Assembly (NCBI GenBank): GCA_037446135.1
Contig: JBBIJD010000001.1
Coordinates: 27,156-91,155 of the forward strand
Direction: 5' to 3'
Length of the DNA stretch: 64,000 nt
From: Candidatus Fraserbacteria bacterium
GTDB taxonomy: Bacteria > Bipolaricaulota > Bipolaricaulia > RBG-16-55-9 > JANLFV01
Part shown: in pieces, positions 7,664 through 50,704 of the stretch
How the letters are laid out: every line of letters starts with the position of its first letter
How positions within the stretch are numbered: position 1 is the stretch's first letter
Translations under genes and position numbers: made by a program
Notes under the pieces: model-generated
What the model was told of the DNA's origin: nothing
The model's input: the letters and a program-made list of their open reading frames with translations, nothing else
The model's database searches: none

Positions 7664-8980
7664 ATGATAGAGGTTCAAGAGTCCAAGGCCTCGGAGGCTA
7701 CGATAGTCGAGGCCGTGCCAGCGGCAAGCGTCAACCCCTATGAGATGGTCCTCACCCAGTTGAGGCTGGTGGCCGCGCGGCTCGAGCTGGAGCCGGGGCT
7801 CCTCGCGATCCTCTCCCATCCGGAGCGGGTCCTGGAGGTCTCCCTCCCAGTGAAGATGGATGATGGCCGGATCGAGGTCTTCACCGGCTATCGTGTCCAG
7901 CATAGCAGCGTCCGCGGCCCGTGCAAAGGGGGGATCCGCTACCATCCCGCCGTGACCCTCGATGAGGTGAAGGCCCTCGCCACCTGGATGACCCTGAAGT
8001 GCGCCGTGGTCAACCTCCCCTATGGCGGGGCTAAGGGCGGGATCAGATGCGATCCGACCCGGCTCTCATTGGGCGAGTTGGAGCGATTGACCCGCCGGTA
8101 TGCGGTGATGATCCGGCCGATCATCGGCCCGCAGAAGGACATCCCCGCCCCAGATGTGAATACCAACGCTGTAGTCATGGACTGGATCATGGACACCCTC
8201 TCCGTCTTCAGCGACTACTATACCGATGAGGTCGTCACGGGGAAGTCGATCGAGCTCGGCGGGGCCCAAGGTCGGCGGGAGGCGACCGGCCGAGGGGTGA
8301 TGGTCGTGACCAAGGAGATCCTCAAGCGGCTGAACCGCGACATCACCAAGACCACCGTCGCGGTCCAGGGCTACGGGAATGTCGGCTCCGTCTCGGCTAC
8401 ATTGCTCGCCCGCGAGGGCTGCCGCGTCGTGGGGGTGAGCGATATCTCCACCGGGCTCTATAACCCCAATGGATTGAATATCGCCGAGATCAACGAGTAT
8501 GTGGCCCAATCCCCCGGCCATCTCCTCAAGGGCTACTCCGCCCCGGGGGTCGAGGAGATCACCAACCAGGAGCTCCTGGCCCTCGATGTCGATGTGCTCG
8601 TCCCGGCGGCCCTCGAGGCGCAGATCACCGCTGAGAATGCCGGCTCAGTCCGGGCCAAGATCATCGTCGAAGGGGCCAACGGGCCGACGACCCCGGAGGC
8701 CGATGTGATCCTAGCGGAGAAGGGGGTCTACATCGTGCCGGACATCCTGGCGAACGCCGGCGGAGTGGTCGTCTCCTACTTCGAGTGGGTTCAGGACCTC
8801 CAGTCCTTCTTCTGGGACGAGGAGGAGACGAACCAGAAGCTCGCGAAGATCATGCAGCAGAGCTTCGCCGAGGTCTGGACCCTGGCCCATCTTGAGGGGG
8901 TCTCGCTCCGGATGGCGGCCCTGATGCTCGGCGTCCGGCGGGTGGCCCAGGCGATCAAGAAGCGGGGGATCTTCCCCTAA
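7664..8980 (+). CDS. gdhA: Glutamate dehydrogenase (Glu/Leu/Phe/Val dehydrogenase family), paralog 1
   Basis: 438 aa. Catalytic Lys motif GPCKGGIRYHP, NLPYGGAKGG, and NAD(P) Rossmann GYGNVGS. Confidence 0.95.
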   Translation: MIEVQESKASEATIVEAVPAASVNPYEMVLTQLRLVAARLELEPGLLAILSHPERVLEVSLPVKMDDGRIEVFTGYRVQHSSVRGPCKGGIRYHPAVTLDEVKALATWMTLKCAVVNLPYGGAKGGIRCDPTRLSLGELERLTRRYAVMIRPIIGPQKDIPAPDVNTNAVVMDWIMDTLSVFSDYYTDEVVTGKSIELGGAQGRREATGRGVMVVTKEILKRLNRDITKTTVAVQGYGNVGSVSATLLAREGCRVVGVSDISTGLYNPNGLNIAEINEYVAQSPGHLLKGYSAPGVEEITNQELLALDVDVLVPAALEAQITAENAGSVRAKIIVEGANGPTTPEADVILAEKGVYIVPDILANAGGVVVSYFEWVQDLQSFFWDEEETNQKLAKIMQQSFAEVWTLAHLEGVSLRMAALMLGVRRVAQAIKKRGIFP

Positions 8981-10539: not shown

Positions 10540-11802
10540 TCAGACCCAGCCGCGGAGCTTCATCGCCTCCGCCACCCGCTGGACGGCCACGAGATAGGCC
10601 GCCAGCCGCATGTGGACCCGCTTCTTCTCGAACATCCCGATGACCTCCTGGAAGGCCTTGGTCATCTTCTGGTCGAGACGCTGGTGGACTTCCTCGAGGG
10701 GCCAGTAATCGCCTGTGACATTCTGGACCCACTCGAAGTAGCTGACAGTCACCCCGCCGGCATTACATAAGAAGTCGGGGATCACGAAGACACCCTTCTC
10801 GTGGAGGATCTCATCGGCCTCCGGGGTCGTCGGCCCGTTGGCCGCCTCGGCGATGATCTTGGCCTTGATCCTCCCGGCATTCTCCTTGGTGATCACATTC
10901 TCCAAGGCCGAGGGCCAGAGGACAGTGACATCCAGCTCGAGGAGCTCCTCGTTCGTGATCCTCTCGGAGTTGGGGAAGTCGGCGACCGTCCCCGTCTCCT
11001 TCTTGTGCTCGAGCAGGCGGTAGGGGTCGAGCCCCCGCTCGGAGTAGACCCCACCTTGGGAGTCGCTGACCGCCACGATCTTCGAGCCGAAGATCTTCTT
11101 GGAGAGGATCGCGGCGAAGCTACCCGCGTTCCCGTAGCCTTGGACCGCGACCGTAGCCTTCGCGAGGTCAATTCCCAGGTATTTAGCCGCCTCGCGGACG
11201 CAGTAGATCCCGCCCCGGGCGGTAGCATCATCTCGTCCGAGCGAGCCACCCAGCGGGACCGGCTTCCCGGTGATCACTCCCGGCGCGTTATATCCTCGGA
11301 GCTTGGAGAATTCATCCATCATCCAGGCCATGATCTGAGGGGTGGTGTAGACATCGGGTGCGGGGATATCCTTCTCCGGGCCGATGAACTCCCCCAAGGC
11401 GCGGATATAGCCCCGAGCGAGCTGCTCCAGCTCTCGCTCGGACATCTCCTTGGGGTTGCAGACCACCCCGCCCTTACCCCCCCCATAAGGGAGGTCGACG
11501 ATCGCGGTCTTCCAGGTCATCCAAGCGGCCAAGGCCCGGACCGTATCTATAGTCTCCTGGGGGTGGAACCTGATCCCACCCTTCGTCGGGCCGCGAGCAT
11601 CGTTATATTGGACGCGGAAGCCCTTGAAGACCTCGACCCGCCCATCGTCCATCCGGACGGGGATCAGGACATGGAGCTCGCGCATCGGCTCGCGGAGCAT
11701 CGCGTGGGTCGGCTCATCCAATCCGAGGATCTCTGCCGCCTCATCGAGCTGCTTCTGAGCGATCTTAAACGGATTCAGTTCCTCTACCAATACCTTCGCC
11801 AT
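10540..11802 (-). CDS. gdhA: Glutamate dehydrogenase, paralog 2
   Basis: 420 aa. [28 protein letters not shown]. About half the residues match paralog 1 by eye. Confidence 0.95.
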
Positions 11803-28475: not shown

Positions 28476-29783
28476 TCAGAGGAGCCGCTGGAGGGCCTCC
28501 GCTAGGGTCGGGCGGCCGATCTCTTGGAGCTCATAGCGGACGCGGACGGCCGGGGCCTCAAATTCGATGAGCCGGCGGAGGTCGATCGGGGTTCCGATGA
28601 TCACCACCTCCGGTGAGGCCCGGCGGATCGTCTCCTCTAGCTCCTTGATCTGCTCTTTCCCGTAACCCATCGCCGGGAGGACCTGCTCCGCTTGGGGATA
28701 CTTCGTGAGGGTCTCGGCGAGCGAGCCGACCGCGAATGGCCGGGGATCAATCAACTCCCGCGCCCCGAATCGCTCCGCGGCCAGCCGCCCGGCGCCGAAG
28801 CTCATCCCGCCATGAGTGAGCGTCGGCCCATCCTCGATGACCAAGGCCCGCTTCCCTCGGATCAGCTCGGGCGCCTCGACCGAGATCGGCGAGGCCGCCT
28901 CGATGATCATCGCCCCAGGATTGACTTTCCGGACATTCTCCCGGACCCGCTGGACCTGCTCTTCAGCGGCGGTATCGACCTTATTGATCACCACCACATC
29001 CGCCGCGCGGATGTTGACCGAGCCGGGCCAAAAGGTCAGCTCATGGCCAGCACGGAGGGGATCAGCGACGGTGATCCACAGGTCCGGGCTGTAGAAGGGG
29101 AAGTCATTGTTTCCCCCATCCCAGAGGATGATATCCGCCTCGCGCTCCGCTTCGCGGAGGATCCGTTCGTAATCGACCCCGGCGAAGACGACATTCCCAT
29201 GATCGAGGTGGGGCTCATATTCTTCCCGCTCCTCGATCGTGCAGTTATGCCGGTCCAGGTCGGCATAGCTGGCGAACCGCTGGACCGCCTGCTTCGCTAG
29301 GTCCCCGTAGGGCATGGGATGGCGGACGATCGCCAGCCTCTTCCCTTTGGCACGGAGGAGCTCGCTCACCCTCCGGGTGGTCTGGCTCTTCCCGCAGCCG
29401 GTCCGAACGGCCGTGATCGCCACTACCGGCTTTTTGGCCTTGAGCATCGTCGAGTCTGGGCCGAGCAGGAGGAAGTCGGCCCCCGCGGCCTGGGCGATGG
29501 CCGCTCGCTCCATCACATGCTGGTGGGAGACATCGCTGTAGGCGAAGACGACCTGCTGGACCTTCTGCTCTTTGATCAATTCCGGGAGGCGCTCCTCCGG
29601 CTCGATCGGGATCCCCTCAGGGTAGAGCGGGCCCGCCAGCTCCGGAGGATACCTCCTCCCGGAGATGTTGGGGATCTGGGTCGCAGTGAAGGCCACGACC
29701 CTATAATCGGGGTTCTCGCGGAAATAGACATTGAAGTTGTGGAAGTCTCTCCCGGCTGCGCCCATGATGATCGCGCGCTTCAC
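28476..29783 (-). CDS. P-loop NTPase-domain protein resembling the cyclic 2,3-diphosphoglycerate synthetase (cPGS) family
   Basis: 435 aa. Walker A-like TGCGKS. Overall length and pattern recall archaeal cPGS-like proteins. Assignment is from memory and needs an HMM search. Confidence 0.5.
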   Translation of the reverse strand: MKRAIIMGAAGRDFHNFNVYFRENPDYRVVAFTATQIPNISGRRYPPELAGPLYPEGIPIEPEERLPELIKEQKVQQVVFAYSDVSHQHVMERAAIAQAAGADFLLLGPDSTMLKAKKPVVAITAVRTGCGKSQTTRRVSELLRAKGKRLAIVRHPMPYGDLAKQAVQRFASYADLDRHNCTIEEREEYEPHLDHGNVVFAGVDYERILREAEREADIILWDGGNNDFPFYSPDLWITVADPLRAGHELTFWPGSVNIRAADVVVINKVDTAAEEQVQRVRENVRKVNPGAMIIEAASPISVEAPELIRGKRALVIEDGPTLTHGGMSFGAGRLAAERFGARELIDPRPFAVGSLAETLTKYPQAEQVLPAMGYGKEQIKELEETIRRASPEVVIIGTPIDLRRLIEFEAPAVRVRYELQEIGRPTLAEALQRLL

Positions 29784-45565: not shown

Positions 45566-46387
45566 TCAGGCACGATGGGCCTCCTCTAAGCGGAGCTTTC
45601 GTCGGGGCGAAAGGAAGGAAAAGAGGAGGAAGAGCCCGCAGGCGGTGAGGGCGATGCTCGTCCCCACTGGGAGATCGGCCCAAAATGAGAGCCCAAAGCC
45701 CGTGAGCCCTGAGAGGGCCCCCAAGGCCGGGGCCAAAAAGAATTGCTGCCGAAGCTCCAAAGTAAGTTGCGAAGCCGCGGAGGCGGGGAGGAAAAGAAGG
45801 GCATAGATCAGGAGCCCGCCCACGAGGCGGAGAGAGCCCACCACCGTCGCGCCGATCAAGAAGAGGAGGGCCCAGAGGATGGGTTTGGCCGGGATCCCGG
45901 CCTCCTCGGCCAGCCTCCGCTCCACGAGCGTGGCCCAGACCTCTCGCCGGAAGAGGATGAGGAAGCCTGCGGAAGCGGCCAGCACCGCTCCTAAGACGAG
46001 GACATCACTCCAGCCCACCCCGAGGAGGCTCCCCCAGAAGAGGGTCAAAGCCGGGGAGGTCAGGGCCTGGCTCGGGCTTAAGGCGATGAAGAGGAAGCCC
46101 AGAGCCATGGTGAGCGGGAAGAGGATGGCCAAGACCGCATCCGCGGGAAGACCGGTGTAGTCCGCGACCGGGCCCAAGAGCGCGGCTACAGCCAGGGCAA
46201 AGAGGAAGGAGAGCACAAGCGGCGGGAGGCCGAGCCAGAAGGCTAAAGCCGCTCCGGCGAAGGCGGCATGGGCCATGGCATAGCCCAAGGCGGAGAGCCG
46301 CAGCCGAAGGGCACAAGAGCCGAGGAGCCCCGAGGTGGCCCCGGAGAGCAGGGCGGAGAGGAGGCTCGGGAGGATCAGCGCCCACAC
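45566..46387 (-). CDS. Metal ABC transporter permease (ABC-3 family, ZnuB/MntB/TroC-like)
   Basis: 273 aa, highly hydrophobic, ABC-3 pattern. Confidence 0.85.
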   Translation of the reverse strand: MWALILPSLLSALLSGATSGLLGSCALRLRLSALGYAMAHAAFAGAALAFWLGLPPLVLSFLFALAVAALLGPVADYTGLPADAVLAILFPLTMALGFLFIALSPSQALTSPALTLFWGSLLGVGWSDVLVLGAVLAASAGFLILFRREVWATLVERRLAEEAGIPAKPILWALLFLIGATVVGSLRLVGGLLIYALLFLPASAASQLTLELRQQFFLAPALGALSGLTGFGLSFWADLPVGTSIALTACGLFLLFSFLSPRRKLRLEEAHRA

Positions 46388-47097
46388 GGCTGGACCTCCG
46401 CCCAGATCTCGGCCAAGCGGACCTTTTGGGGAAGGGGCTGAGTCTTCCCTTCTCGGACGAGGAAGGCCCGGTCGGCCCGGGCGAGGAGCTCCTCCTCGTG
46501 GACCACCGCGAGGATGGTCAGTCCTTCATCCTTCAAGTCGAGGATGGCCTGGGCCAGGTCCAGCCGGGCTTGAGGGTCCAAAGAGGCGAAGGGCTCATCG
46601 AGGAGGAGGATCTCCGCCCCTTTGGCCATGGCCCGGGCGAGGAGGGCCTTCCGTTGCTGCCCCCCGGAGAGATGGCCGATGGGCCAATCCGCCCGCTCAG
46701 CGAGGCCGAACCGCTCCAGGGCGGAAAGGGCCCTCTTGCGCTCCTCTCGGGGGAGCCTCTGCCAAGGCCGGAGCTGGCCGAATCGGCCCATGAGGACGAG
46801 GTCGAGGGTCCGGCAGGGCGCATCCGGCGGGAAGAAGAGCTCCTGGGGGAGGTAGCCGATCCTTTTGCGGACCTCGGCCCGGTGGGCCCGAACCTCGAGC
46901 CCGAAGGTCCGAGCCCGGCCACGATAGGGGACGAAGCCGAGGAGCACCTCGAGGATCGTGGTCTTCCCGGCGCCATTCGGGCCTACAAGGAGCCCAAGCT
47001 CCTGAGGGGAGAGGGAGAGCGAGGCACCCTTCAGGGCCGCTCCTCTCCCCCCAGGATAAGCCGCCCAGACCTCCTCTAGCTCGAGGATAGGCTCCAT
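46375..47097 (-). CDS. Metal ABC transporter ATP-binding protein (ZnuC/TroB-like)
   Basis: 240 aa. GPNGAGKTT, LSGGQQRKALLARA, LLLDEP. Confidence 0.9.
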   Translation of the reverse strand: MEPILELEEVWAAYPGGRGAALKGASLSLSPQELGLLVGPNGAGKTTILEVLLGFVPYRGRARTFGLEVRAHRAEVRKRIGYLPQELFFPPDAPCRTLDLVLMGRFGQLRPWQRLPREERKRALSALERFGLAERADWPIGHLSGGQQRKALLARAMAKGAEILLLDEPFASLDPQARLDLAQAILDLKDEGLTILAVVHEEELLARADRAFLVREGKTQPLPQKVRLAEIWAEVQPCGR

Positions 47098-47510
47098 GTG
47101 AAGAGCTCCTCTTCTGGCGCGGTTAAGACCTCGTCCGTAAGGCTATCCTTAGCCCCGGAAGCGAGGAGCCGCTTCAGCCACTCCTCCTGCAAGGCCACCC
47201 GCAGGGTTTGGCCATTGGCAGAGAAGACGGCCTCCGGCCTTCCGCTCGGGAGGACCCGGAGGTTCCCCTTCCCCGCGGTGCAGCCCGTGGCCACTTGGAT
47301 CCCATCGACGAGACAAGAGATCGGCGGCTCCGTCCCGGTATGGGCCTCAGCAGCGATTCCGGTGAACCCCGAAGAGCCGAGGAGCCGCAGGGCGAGGAGC
47401 CCCATTCGGAGCCCAATCGCCAGAAATGGCCCCTTGTGGCCGTGGAGCCTCACTGCTAGAGGCATAAGCCCGGCGGGGTCGATATCTGGATCGATCCGTT
47501 CCCAGCTCAT
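47076..47510 (-). CDS. FmdE-like domain protein (formylmethanofuran dehydrogenase subunit E-like)
   Basis: 144 aa. HGHKGPFLAIGLRMG...C...C pattern typical of the FmdE-like family, which commonly sits in metal-uptake operons. Confidence 0.6.
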   Translation of the reverse strand: MSWERIDPDIDPAGLMPLAVRLHGHKGPFLAIGLRMGLLALRLLGSSGFTGIAAEAHTGTEPPISCLVDGIQVATGCTAGKGNLRVLPSGRPEAVFSANGQTLRVALQEEWLKRLLASGAKDSLTDEVLTAPEEELFTWSLSSS

Positions 47511-48406
47511 GGGGCACCTACCGGCATGAGGGCCTCGACGGCGGCGAAGATGAGCTCGGCGTTCACCCGGAGCATCGAGAGCATGTCCACTGCGCCCGGG
47601 ATGGGGCCGGGGAAGTTGGTGAGGACGATGTGGACAGCACCGATGGCCTGGGCCAGGCGGCCACCGAAGGAGACGCCGGACTGGAGGTTATCGATCACCA
47701 GCTTCACCCCGGCCTCACGGCCCTTGGCCGCAAGCTCAGTGAGGTCCTTCACGGTCAGCCGCTCCTCCGGAGGATAGGTGGCGACGATCTTCAGGCCGAG
47801 CCAGCGGGCGAACCCCTCCTGCCAGGCCATCACGATGGCCGGGACCTCCTCAAGCCTGAGCCCCCTGGCCCGGCCTTGGATCTCTTGGGCTAGGGCCTCA
47901 AGGTCCGCGAGGAACTGGTCAAGCCGGGCCTGGAAGAGCTCGGCCTTCTCCGGCCAGAGCTCCTTCATCGCTCCGGCGATGGCCTTGGCCTTTTCAGAGA
48001 GGGGCTCAGGCGAATTCCACTCGCCCCCGAGCTTGATCACCTTGGCTTGGGGGTTGATGTTGGCCAAGAGCCGCTCGATCCAGGGCTCGATCCCGTGGTA
48101 GATCACGAGCTCGGCCTTGGCGAGGTAAAGGAAGTCCGAGGGCCGAAGGTCATAGTGGGCTGGGCAGAAGCCGGCGGGGATGATGGTGATCACCAGGACA
48201 TCCTCCGCGCCGATCGTCCGGGCAAGGCTCCCGAAGACCTCGGAGGTGGCGACCACCACCGGCTTCTCCTGGCCTTGGCCCTGACCGCGGCCGAGCGGAC
48301 CGCGCACGACCGCCAGTGCTAGCAGCGCGAGAATTAAGATCCTAAGCTTGAAACCCATCTCAGCCTCCTCATCTCCTAGATAGCACCATTTTAACAAAAG
48401 TGACAC
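47507..48406 (-). CDS. Metal ABC transporter substrate-binding protein (cluster A-I, ZnuA/TroA-like)
   Basis: 299 aa in the track. The internal Met of MGFKLRILILALLALAVV is the probable start (signal peptide). TroA fold pattern (VVATSEVFGSLAR, HYDLRPSD). Confidence 0.8.
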   Translation of the reverse strand: MSLLLKWCYLGDEEAEMGFKLRILILALLALAVVRGPLGRGQGQGQEKPVVVATSEVFGSLARTIGAEDVLVITIIPAGFCPAHYDLRPSDFLYLAKAELVIYHGIEPWIERLLANINPQAKVIKLGGEWNSPEPLSEKAKAIAGAMKELWPEKAELFQARLDQFLADLEALAQEIQGRARGLRLEEVPAIVMAWQEGFARWLGLKIVATYPPEERLTVKDLTELAAKGREAGVKLVIDNLQSGVSFGGRLAQAIGAVHIVLTNFPGPIPGAVDMLSMLRVNAELIFAAVEALMPVGAP

Positions 48407-48438
48407 AAAGGGTCAAGGCTGCCGAGGGGCTTGATGAC

Positions 48439-48867
48439 CTAGCGGAGCCGCTCACCCGTCGAGGTGGCTGCCAGCTTCCCGTGCTTGACTCCCTTAAGGC
48501 CGATGAGCCGGTCGGCCAGCCCCTGGACCTCGGGCCCCGGGCCGCGGACGGTCAGGACCTCTAAGCAGTTGGCCTCGTCGAGGTGGATGTGCATCGTGGA
48601 GAGAATCAAGTCGTGGTGCTCATGCTGGAGGTCGGTCAGCCGGTCAGAAAGCTCCCGCTTGTGGTGGTCGTAGAGCAAGATTATGACCCCCACGACCTCC
48701 TCGCCCGCCTCCCACTCCCGCTGGACCAGCCTGTCCCGGACCAGATCCCTTAAAGCTTCGGAGCGGTTGGCATAGCCCATCTGGGCGATCAGCTCATCGA
48801 ATCGGGCGAGGAGCTCCTCATCCATCGAGACGCCGAAACGCACTAACTCACCCATCTTTTTCATCAT
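48439..48867 (-). CDS. nikR: Nickel-responsive regulator NikR (ribbon-helix-helix + ACT-like metal-binding domain)
   Basis: [39 protein letters not shown] (RHH). [41 protein letters not shown] (high-affinity Ni site His/Cys ligands), closely matching E. coli NikR. Confidence 0.9.
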
Positions 48868-48978
48868 ACCCGAAGGGGATGCCCCCGGCGAAGGGCCGGC
48901 CAGGCCGGGCTGAGTTGGACAACCCTTCCCCTTCTCGTTAGAGTAGTTCTGTCAGTCAGTCCAGACTCCAAGATCGAG

Positions 48979-49704
48979 GTGGTAGCGATGGCTCGAGCGG
49001 GTCCGGACCAGAAGGGGCTACGTGCGCTCCTTGGGGCGATCTATCGGAAGCCGCGGAACGAGGAACTCTTCGACCGGCTCGACGAGCTGGCCGGCTATAG
49101 CCAGGAGGCGACCCGGCTCTTCCGGCAGTTCGCCTTCGGCGACCTCCCCTTCCTGGAGGCCAAGAGCCAGATCGAGGCCGTCGAGAACAGGGCCGATGAA
49201 GCCCTCCGCCGGATCAATCAGGCCCTCTCCGCAGTCTTCCGCCCCCCGCCGGAGACGAAGGCCGGGCTGAGTGAGATCGCGGAGATGATCGATAACATCG
49301 TCGATCTCGTCCAGACGGCGGTCCGGAATATCGACTCCAGCCGGCTGATGGAGGATACCGAGGGCTTCGGGGAGTTCGCGATCATCCTTCAGAAGGCCAC
49401 GGTGGAGCTGGGGAATGCCATCCGCTGCCTCCGGCGGCACCAGGCCCAGGAGGAGGAGATGCGCCGGGCCGCCCGCGCGATGATCAGCCTAGAGCACGAG
49501 TGCGATGAGCTCCTCGCCGCGGAGATGAAGGAGCTGAGCCGACGAGAGGACGAGGCCCGGGCGAGAGGGGACGCCCTGGAGTTGGCCTGGCTCAGTGTCC
49601 TCAAAGAGCGCCGGAAGAGCGTCTATACCCCCCTGGAGGACGCGCTCGATGCGGCCAAAGATATCGGGAAGGCCCTGAGGCGCTATGTCCTGATCAACCC
49701 TTAA
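48979..49704 (+). CDS. DUF47-family protein (PhoU-like, Pit accessory)
   Basis: 241 aa, helical. Conserved pairing with the downstream PiT transporter. Confidence 0.8.
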   Translation: MVAMARAGPDQKGLRALLGAIYRKPRNEELFDRLDELAGYSQEATRLFRQFAFGDLPFLEAKSQIEAVENRADEALRRINQALSAVFRPPPETKAGLSEIAEMIDNIVDLVQTAVRNIDSSRLMEDTEGFGEFAIILQKATVELGNAIRCLRRHQAQEEEMRRAARAMISLEHECDELLAAEMKELSRREDEARARGDALELAWLSVLKERRKSVYTPLEDALDAAKDIGKALRRYVLINP

Positions 49705-49714
49705 AGGGAGGGGC

Positions 49715-50704
49715 ATGCCCGAACTGGGGTTCCTCGTTGTCGTCGTCGGCCTGGCCTGGGTGTTTGACTTCTACAACGGGATGAACGACGCGGCGAACGC
49801 GATCGCCACGACCGTGGCCACGGGTGCGCTCCCGCCGCGTCTGGCCGCATTCCTTGCGGCAGCATTGAACATGGCCGGGGCCCTCTTGACGACCGAGGTG
49901 GCCAAGACCGTGGGCGAGGGGATCATCCCCCCTGGCCTGATGAGCCAAGAGCTTCTCATCGCCGCGCTCATCGGCGGGATCGCCTGGGTCGCACTGGCCA
50001 CGCACAAGGGGATCCCAGTGAGCATCACTCATGCCCTGATCGGGGGGCTCCTCGGGGCCGGGGCCCTGAGCGTCGGCCCCTCCCAGATCAAGCTGGCCGG
50101 CTTGGCCAAGGTCGGCCTGGCAATGGTCCTCTCCCCCCTTCTGGGCTTCGTCACCGCATTCATCGTCCTCCTCGGGTTCTACTGGGCCCTGGCGGACTTC
50201 AGGCCCAGGGCCGTCAATCGAGCCCTCCGGGCCGGCCAACTCCTCTCCGCCTCCTTTGTCTCCTTCAGCCACGGCTCGAACGACAGCCAGAATGCGATGG
50301 GGATCATCACTGCCGCGCTGGTCCTGACCGGGCGGCTCGAGGCCTTCTCGGTCCCGCTGTGGGTGATCCTCGGCTCGGGGTTCTTCATGGGCTTGGGAAC
50401 CCAGCTCGGGGGCTGGAAGGTGGTCGAGACCGTAGGGATGAAGATGGCCCGGCTCGAGCCGATCCACGGGTTCAGCGCCGAGGCGAGCGGCGGATTGGTC
50501 ATCCTCCTCTCGACCCTCTTCGGGGCCCCGATCAGCACGACCCATGTGATGACCTCGGCGATCGTGGGGGCCGCCGCGGGGGAGAACCTCGGGCGAGTCC
50601 GGTTCAATTGGGTGAGACGGGTCGTGGCCGCCTGGCTCTTCACCTTCTTCGGGGCCGGGGCCTGCGCTTTGGTAGCCTATCTGATCCTCAAGCTCTTCAT
50701 GTGA
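49715..50704 (+). CDS. pit: Inorganic phosphate transporter, PiT family
   Basis: 329 aa. GMNDAANAIAT and GSNDSQNAMGII duplicated PiT signature motifs. Confidence 0.95.
   Translation: MPELGFLVVVVGLAWVFDFYNGMNDAANAIATTVATGALPPRLAAFLAAALNMAGALLTTEVAKTVGEGIIPPGLMSQELLIAALIGGIAWVALATHKGIPVSITHALIGGLLGAGALSVGPSQIKLAGLAKVGLAMVLSPLLGFVTAFIVLLGFYWALADFRPRAVNRALRAGQLLSASFVSFSHGSNDSQNAMGIITAALVLTGRLEAFSVPLWVILGSGFFMGLGTQLGGWKVVETVGMKMARLEPIHGFSAEASGGLVILLSTLFGAPISTTHVMTSAIVGAAAGENLGRVRFNWVRRVVAAWLFTFFGAGACALVAYLILKLFM

Follow-up and report, generated by a model that had tools for sequence, protein, structure and literature searches.

What does an ATP-binding cassette (ABC) transporter of the ABC-3 family import when its operon stands directly behind the gene of NikR, a nickel-responsive repressor? 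This question is raised by a locus of a Candidatus Fraserbacteria bacterium (Bipolaricaulota; GenBank assembly GCA_037446135.1), found in a stretch of 64,000 nucleotides of contig JBBIJD010000001.1 (positions 27,156 to 91,155) that is referred to below as the window. Five minus-strand genes, overlapping or adjacent, span positions 45566-48867 of the window and encode successively NikR, a secreted binding protein, an FmdE-like protein, an ABC ATPase and an ABC-3 permease. ABC-3 systems are customarily treated as manganese, zinc or iron importers and were not included in a survey of nickel uptake (2009 census, PMC2667541), which comprised NikABCDE, Nik/CbiMNQO, NiCoT, UreH and HupE/UreJ. The reading that we propose for the locus, and consider probable, is that of an ABC-3-class nickel importer repressed by nickel, in which the FmdE-like protein would act as a cytoplasmic acceptor of the metal.

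The domains of all five proteins were assigned by Pfam and NCBIfam profile scans. Together with the gene calls, these scans bear out the five-gene order on the minus strand, with nikR upstream and co-oriented, that had been claimed in an initial annotation of this DNA. From the binding-protein gene onward, consecutive reading frames share 4, 22 and 13 nt (binding protein to FmdE-like protein, to ATPase, to permease), for which reason these four genes are considered a single operon, separated from nikR by a gap of 80 nt.

The regulator and its operator

The repressor encoded at 48439-48867 (minus strand, like the other features of the cassette) belongs to the ribbon-helix-helix proteins, with matches to Pfam RHH_1 (39.4 bits) and NikR_C (118.8 bits) and to the NCBIfam equivalog NF003381 (204.9 bits for a cutoff of 105). 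Its closest solved relative is the NikR of Pyrococcus horikoshii (2bj1, 157 bits), and in the alignment to this structure all four nickel ligands are kept, namely H82, H93, H95 and C101, within a QHEHHD... stretch. We take these residues to be the counterparts of H76, H87, H89 and C95 of the Escherichia coli protein, with identical spacing. The equivalog score and the four ligands confirm that the gene encodes a clear NikR, with a ribbon-helix-helix domain and a His/Cys nickel site, as first annotated. Judging from its orthologues, its start is likely the ATG at 48855 (MGELVRF...) rather than position 48867.

The 80-nt gap contains a strong sigma-70-like promoter for the transporter operon (48388-48416, consensus scan), made of a -35 element TTGACC (48416-48411), a 17-nt spacer and an extended -10 element TGtTAAAAT (hexamer 48393-48388), which matches the consensus at 10 of 12 positions in addition to the TG extension. 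Superimposed on it is a 7-13-7 dyad, GTGTCAC-ttttgttaaaatg-GTGCTAT (48380-48406), retrieved both as a pattern and as a position weight matrix (PWM) match. The pattern GTRNNAC-N13-GTRNNAY occurs a single time in the 64-kb window, at this very position, for 0.09 occurrences expected. The PWM, trained on 25 independent orthologous sites in other genomes, gives the dyad a score of 15.5 for the half-sites and 26.5 for the full site, the next best positions of the window reaching 8.2 and 8.3, respectively. A NikR signal GTGTTAC-[N13/14]-GTAACAC, including variants in which the orientation of a half-site is changed, was described upstream of nikMNQO operons (Rodionov et al. 2004, PMC545781), and by its sequence the dyad at 48380-48406, a candidate NikR operator, belongs to this published class.

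Other types of search gave different outcomes. GTATGA-N16-TCATAC, the operator of the E. coli type, was rejected: when up to 3 mismatches were allowed, it had 6 matches in the window for 6.6 expected, none of them near the locus. Since the half-site centres of the N13 operator lack complementarity, a generic search for inverted repeats over 48380-49000 did not detect it and returned just GC-rich hairpins 5' of nikR. A very loose scan for GTnnnAC dyads, with one mismatch allowed, was non-discriminating, with fewer matches than in shuffled sequences, and was superseded by the PWM and the stricter pattern. Of the two intervals where the initial annotation had recommended to look for NikR operators, 48380-48440 proved to hold the N13 box; the expectation failed for 48868-48980, upstream of nikR, where no box was found, and for an E. 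coli-type site.

Conservation of the cassette and of the box

With an FmdE alignment as query, a scan limited to one genome per species yielded 80 loci, whose gene order was determined by phmmer with the proteins of the window. The order binding protein, FmdE, ATPase, permease is present in 38 of these 80 FmdE-derived loci, and nikR lies within the same locus in 23 of the 38 cassettes, co-oriented and upstream in bacteria and mostly divergent in Thermoplasmata. According to the deposited names, the 38 cassettes come from Bipolaricaulota/Acetothermia, 'Thermotogae' metagenome-assembled genomes (MAGs), Atribacterota, Neomarinimicrobiota, Thermoplasmata and Theionarchaea. The same five-gene layout (Pfam NikR, ZnuA, FmdE, ABC_tran, ABC-3) was recovered from an independent starting point, using homologues of the binding protein with 42-48% identity. 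Judged by the deposited names again, the hosts are anaerobes, both acetogens and relatives of methanogens. Such organisms depend on nickel enzymes: carbon monoxide dehydrogenase/acetyl-CoA synthase (CODH/ACS), F430 enzymes and NiFe hydrogenases.

A box of the NikR class (N13 or N14) was found in all 36 cassette loci with enough upstream sequence. In 33 of them the box has the N13 spacing and stands where the binding-protein gene or nikR begins; in the remaining three (L027, L036, L042) it has the N14 spacing and lies just before nikR. Wherever an intergenic region precedes the binding-protein gene, the dyad is located there; where nikR abuts this gene, the dyad lies just 5' of nikR (L026, L033, L034, L040, L041, L043). 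Boxes are present also in loci devoid of an adjacent nikR (L004-L010). An apparent box located inside a binding-protein gene in three loci of anaerobic methanotrophic archaea (ANME; L015, L016, L018) is probably not functional.

The genes that accompany the box were also surveyed in a metagenome collection scanned for GTGTTACGA-N9-TCGTAACAC, a search unbiased by the cassette, which gave 112 stretches, 80 loci of which were read. The box lies beside nikR in 13-15 of these 80 loci, CbiM/NikM in 12, TonB-dependent receptors in 8 plus 6, SBP_bac_5 (NikA-like) in 6, and Peripla_BP_2 with FecCD and an ATPase in 3-4; a NiCoT-like permease was recognised by eye only. Since it flanks nikR, NikM and NikA-like genes, the box marks nickel-uptake genes generally, and the cassette of the window would be one more class of its targets. 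The overlap of the box with the promoter, its conservation and the nickel ligands of NikR jointly support the control of the ABC-3 importer by NikR claimed in the initial annotation, and we hold it as highly likely, from these sequence features, that NikR controls the transporter operon.

Two side observations concern the distribution of the cassette. The contig JBBIJZ010000098.1 (L001) is 97% identical to the cassette of the window and was deposited under a Verrucomicrobiales MAG, although it probably stems from Bipolaricaulota and was assigned there by a binning error. Public proteins that equal or nearly equal those of the window cassette bear the labels Candidatus Bipolaricaulis or Bipolaricaulota. 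Bipolaricaulota-like cassettes were also encountered on several MAG contigs labelled 'Thermotogae'.

The binding protein, the FmdE-like protein and the imported metal

The binding protein (47507-48358; Pfam ZnuA PF01297, 99 bits) was listed as an open reading frame (ORF) starting at a GTG at 48406, which falls within the NikR operator. Its true start is the ATG at 48358, behind the ribosome-binding site GAGGAGG, as a 283-aa database protein (P0115) matches at 100% identity and coverage. Its AlphaFold2 model (predicted local distance difference test, pLDDT, 92.9) retrieved MntC, YfeA, ZnuA, AztC, TroA and PsaA with Foldseek at template modelling (TM) scores of 0.73-0.78 and 16-26% identity. It displays the two-lobe ZnuA/TroA fold of cluster A-I, and its operon contains the permease and the ATPase expected of an ABC-3 importer. 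The permease (45566-46387) matches Pfam ABC-3 PF00950 at 137.8 bits and is below the NCBIfam cutoffs for AztB (104 vs 280), SloB and ZnuB; the ATPase (46375-47097) matches Pfam ABC_tran at 94.2 bits, and its nearest NCBIfam model, AztA, is reached at 146 bits, under the cutoff of 220. The binding protein is likewise far below the cutoffs of the zinc and manganese models (AztC 41.6 vs 350, ZnuA 32.2 vs 268, MntC 32.1 vs 500). As to proteins of the NikABCDE type, neither SBP_bac_5 nor BPD_transp was matched in Pfam by the proteins of the locus.

The canonical metal ligands were mapped by sequence and profile alignment to solved relatives and by secondary-structure position, not from coordinates. 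In the canonical four-position site (His, His, His/Glu, Asp or water), just ligand 1, H68, is retained: the 'dpHaW' histidine that forms ligand 2 is lost in a deletion, with Gly112 found instead, the position of ligand 3 is occupied by W179/Q180, and the Asp of ligand 4 is changed into Asn248. The whole protein contains one Cys and three His and is devoid of a His-rich loop. It displays a signature of its own, C65-P66-x-H68-Y-D70, E91, N224, Q226 and N248-F-P. Among 142 diverse full-length representatives, C65-P66 and N224 are invariant (142/142 each), H68 is present in 129, D70 and Q226 in 133 each and N248-F-P in 132-136, which suggests that the key residue may be Cys65, never replaced, rather than His68. 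The conserved pocket residues are all found at the C-terminal ends of beta-strands in the secondary structure of the model and would line the interdomain cleft. The abundance of conserved polar and aromatic residues among them suggests that the ligand may be a nickel chelate rather than the bare ion. The ligand of NikA and NikZ is a nickel chelate. An exhaustive search over 1.84 billion cluster representatives (50% identity clusters) delimited this subfamily to 320 representatives at E<=1e-30, compared with 15,688 of the ZnuA type at E<=1e-3. The ligand pattern supports the prediction that the binding protein is not a canonical zinc or manganese binder.

The FmdE-like protein (47076-47510; Pfam PF02663, 85.8 bits, cutoff 22.9) has a single domain, is predicted to be cytoplasmic since no signal peptide was recognised by eye, and lacks a zinc ribbon. 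Its AlphaFold2 model (pLDDT 93.2) has as sole significant matches in the PDB 2gvi, 2glz and 3d00 (Foldseek, TM 0.73-0.76). Its conserved motifs are H23-G-H25-x-G27-P, C66, D69, G76-C77-T and G80-K-G-N83. Its initial description as Cys-rich did not hold, as two Cys alone (C66 and C77) complement the HGH motif. The solved FmdE domains contain a tetrahedral His-His-Cys-Cys site (HxHxC...C) occupied by Zn or by mixed Zn/Ni, as well as a large cleft and a ligand of unknown identity that seems to be attached through a thioester to the conserved Cys, and the genes of the PF02663 family mostly adjoin metal-transporter genes (Axelrod et al. 2010, PMC2954224). In the alignment to 2gvi, H23, H25 and C66 of this site are kept and the cysteine of HxHxC corresponds to Gly27. 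The HGHxGP motif is present in 110 of 114 homologues, counted in a homology-based set because the genome loci, fetched partly by that peptide, were unsuitable, and C77 is invariant. From this pattern, the invariant Cys77 could substitute for the missing cysteine of HxHxC.

Genes encoding FmdE-like proteins were also observed behind NikR boxes outside of the cassette. In an Atribacterota genome, a stand-alone gene (L053:5852-6408) is preceded by a perfect box, GTGTTAC-N13-GTAACAC, and flanked by a CstA gene and a convergent amidohydrolase gene (Pfam); in a second Atribacterota species, a stand-alone gene (L048:5885-6387) is preceded by the one-mismatch box ATGTTAC-N13-GTAACAC, and the layout of the flanking ORFs is identical. 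A metagenome contig found via the box alone carries a perfect box (L165:5534-5560) with four minus-side genes behind it, encoding a secreted DUF5689-like protein, a prepilin-type protein, the S-component of an energy-coupling factor (ECF) transporter and an FmdE-like protein; here FmdE therefore accompanies a second, unrelated type of importer under a NikR box. A Planctomycetota MAG (L031:505-4311) contains two near-perfect boxes, one before an FmdE-like gene and an S-adenosylmethionine methyltransferase gene, the other before an O-methyltransferase, a cupin and two ORFs without Pfam match, and this locus may represent a NikR-controlled small-molecule pathway. In an ANME-related MAG (L015:1951-5098), the FmdE-like gene lies behind two paralogous secreted proteins of ~410 aa, in which a dockerin-like N-terminal repeat and an Fe/B12-type binding-protein body were recognised by eye; if so, FmdE would be linked to yet another class of transporters.

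As they occur behind boxes alone or with an ECF S-component, FmdE-like genes belong to NikR regulons in their own right, and since NikR represses when nickel is plentiful, FmdE-like proteins would be made when it is scarce. A role in acquisition or delivery would fit better than one in storage or detoxification. The fmd operons were sequenced in the 1990s, and the FmdE family is not known to have been given a function since; a role as a chaperone is advanced here tentatively, as a possibility suggested by the residues of the site.

Several observations weigh against a nickel importer under NikR control. The operator of the window is degenerate, its second half-site GTGCTAT ending with a T, and its centre is in direct and not inverted orientation. 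The matrix and the strict pattern detected no NikR box 5' of the nikR of the window (48868-48978), so autoregulation of nikR, supported at other loci, is unsupported here. The density of boxes is ~110-fold higher in start zones than elsewhere, a figure that is partly circular, 25 sites having trained the PWM. H68 of the binding protein is replaced in a few members by Asn (L027, L042), Phe (L033) or Gln (some representatives), and the conserved residues are assigned to the cleft because they lie at the C-terminal ends of beta-strands. Cys/His sites would suit Zn(II) too, the database annotations all designate the binding protein as a zinc or metal ABC binding protein, and nickel enzymes and maturation genes are absent from the ten large ORFs of the window scanned by Pfam. 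A further point is the suggestion by Kaster et al. 2011 (PMC3087415) of a zinc-sensing function for MTH603, a NikR homologue of Methanothermobacter encoded beside ZnuABC (MTH604-606). It fits with an ordinary zinc (or manganese or iron) ABC-3 importer, in which the NikR-family protein would sense zinc, as do the closest relatives of the binding protein, ATPase and permease, which are AztABC, ZnuABC and MntABC, the names given to the homologues, and the metal of the FmdE crystal structures, which is mainly zinc (PMC2954224). We nevertheless judge a zinc importer quite improbable, given that the scores for the zinc and manganese equivalogs are all far under their cutoffs, that the binding protein retains a single one of the four canonical ligands and has no His-rich loop, that the exact nickel site is kept in NikR, and that the same operator elsewhere precedes NikM, NikA-like and nikR genes.

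Homology between transporters of nickel and of cobalt is common, as in the Nik/CbiMNQO and NiCoT families (PMC2667541), and the two metals are inseparable from sequence alone, so that the regulation could be as proposed and the substrate be cobalt or another thiophilic metal, the control by NikR being a cross-talk. This appears even less probable than zinc, as NikR boxes mark nickel genes in the literature (PMC545781, PMC2667541), and as no B12 riboswitch or cobalamin gene was noticed at the locus, where no RNA-family search was made. We regard nickel as the probable substrate. Another alternative accepts the import of nickel and assigns a different role to the FmdE-like protein, either that of a regulatory subunit or metal-sensing gate for the ATPase, or that of a chelate-processing enzyme, which might for instance free the metal from an imported complex. 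The translational coupling of its gene between those of the binding protein and of the ATPase would agree with such a role, as would the apparent thioester-linked ligand and large cleft of FmdE structures (PMC2954224) and the conserved polar and aromatic cleft residues of the binding protein, more numerous than a bare ion needs. It is nonetheless unlikely, if less so than the zinc and cobalt proposals: the stand-alone FmdE-like genes behind boxes (L053, L048) cannot encode transporter subunits, and an HxH...C site with one free coordination position would be typical of a transfer site.

In the nickel importer that we favour, NikR would be made from its own, box-free promoter, and once loaded with Ni(II) it would bind GTGTCAC-N13-GTGCTAT. 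Since this dyad overlaps the spacer and -10 hexamer of the TTGACC-17-TAAAAT promoter as well as the point where transcription is expected to begin, bound NikR would block RNA polymerase, that is, repression would proceed by promoter occlusion. When nickel is scarce, the operon would be expressed and provide the binding protein, the ABC-3 permease, the ATPase and the small cytoplasmic FmdE-like protein. The pocket of the binding protein, presumably rebuilt around a Cys-Pro-x-His-(Y/F)-Asp loop and Asn/Gln residues, would capture nickel as a free ion or a small chelate and hand it to the permease and ATPase. The His-x-His...Cys site of the FmdE-like protein, one ligand short of the four of the solved FmdE, would most likely receive the imported metal in the cytoplasm, and the protein would pass it on as a metallochaperone or a transporter-coupled acceptor.

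Relation to known systems and genomic neighbourhood

The locus resembles NikR/NikABCDE of E. coli in that a His3Cys ribbon-helix-helix NikR is encoded beside a binding-protein-dependent ABC importer, with repression expected through a promoter dyad. It differs from it by the nature of the importer, which combines a ZnuA/TroA fold with an ABC-3 permease, whereas NikA is of the SBP_bac_5 (peptide/opine) type and is associated with the NikBC permeases, by the operator (GTGTCAC-N13-GTGCTAT vs GTATGA-N16-TCATAC), and by the presence of an FmdE-like gene within the operon. With NikMNQO/NikKMLQO of delta-proteobacteria (PMC545781) it shares the class of operator, nickel uptake having been predicted there from NikR boxes; these are however ECF-type systems without a secreted binding protein, while the system of the window is a classical ABC-3 importer that has one. 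ZnuABC, TroABCD, MntABC and AztABCD have in common with it the fold of the binding protein, the permease and ATPase families and the logic of the operon, but they possess the canonical metal ligands and are regulated by Zur, MntR or TroR instead of NikR. In contrast to these systems, the accessory protein of the window is cytoplasmic and has the FmdE fold. A dedicated metallochaperone encoded together with a cluster A-I/ABC-3 transporter has a precedent in AztD.

The FmdE structures of Dhaf_2992 (2GLZ), Ta1109 (2GVI) and SYN_00638 (3D00) share with the FmdE-like protein an alpha+beta core, HxH and a distal Cys, and Dhaf_2992 is, like it, a single-domain protein, with mixed Zn/Ni at its HxHxC...C site (PMC2954224). 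Unlike the solved proteins, that of the window lacks the HxHxC cysteine, a C-terminal zinc ribbon and nearby formylmethanofuran dehydrogenase genes; a link of the FmdE family with NikR is not drawn in that study. MTH603 and MTH604-606 of Methanothermobacter likewise join a NikR-family gene to a ZnuABC-like transporter in a nickel-hungry anaerobe, and differ, by their description in PMC3087415, in having three transporter genes, no mention of FmdE and a suggested sensing of zinc. No description of a NikR-FmdE-ABC-3 system was found in the literature searched, including a 2024 review on metallostasis, and a prior mention is possible in Rodionov et al. 2006.

The subfamily of the binding protein is small, with ~320 clusters at 50% identity against ~15,700 detectable ones of the ZnuA type, and its hosts are uncultivated nickel-demanding anaerobes, among them Bipolaricaulota acetogens, Atribacterota, Thermoplasmata and relatives of Methanothrix. 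If the transporter is a nickel importer, many annotations as 'zinc ABC transporter' would be wrong in these genomes, a supply route of nickel for CODH/ACS, hydrogenase and F430 enzymes would become identifiable, and the FmdE family would gain a directly testable role, the first function for FmdE/FwdE should the chaperone reading be true. The 'ZnuABC' clusters beside NikR in methanogens would then be nickel and not zinc systems, and the cassette would offer a natural example of a zinc/manganese pocket re-engineered for another metal. The broadest proposal, a previously uncatalogued family of nickel importers with a rebuilt pocket, and FmdE-like proteins as a new class of nickel metallochaperones recurring in NikR regulons with several unrelated importers, is held as less likely than not.

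No fmd/fwd gene, of the kind co-transcribed with the original FmdE, was seen among the neighbours of the cassette, which are, besides the transporter genes and nikR, a DUF47/Pit gene pair and ABC exporter genes. The former pair, located at 48979-50704 on the plus strand and divergent from nikR, consists of a DUF47/PhoU_div gene and a PHO4/Pit phosphate permease gene; the pair has a sigma-70-like promoter match at 48916-48944, and the intergenic region that it shares with nikR contains no NikR box. At the other end of the cassette, two ABC exporter genes converge on it. Farther away in the window, a 435-aa ORF (28476-29783, minus strand) has a weak match (26.6 bits) to the C-terminal part of CobW/HypB/UreG and may be related to metallochaperone GTPases, and two paralogous dehydrogenases of the glutamate/leucine type (7664-8980 and 10540-11802) are encoded on opposite strands less than 3 kb apart.

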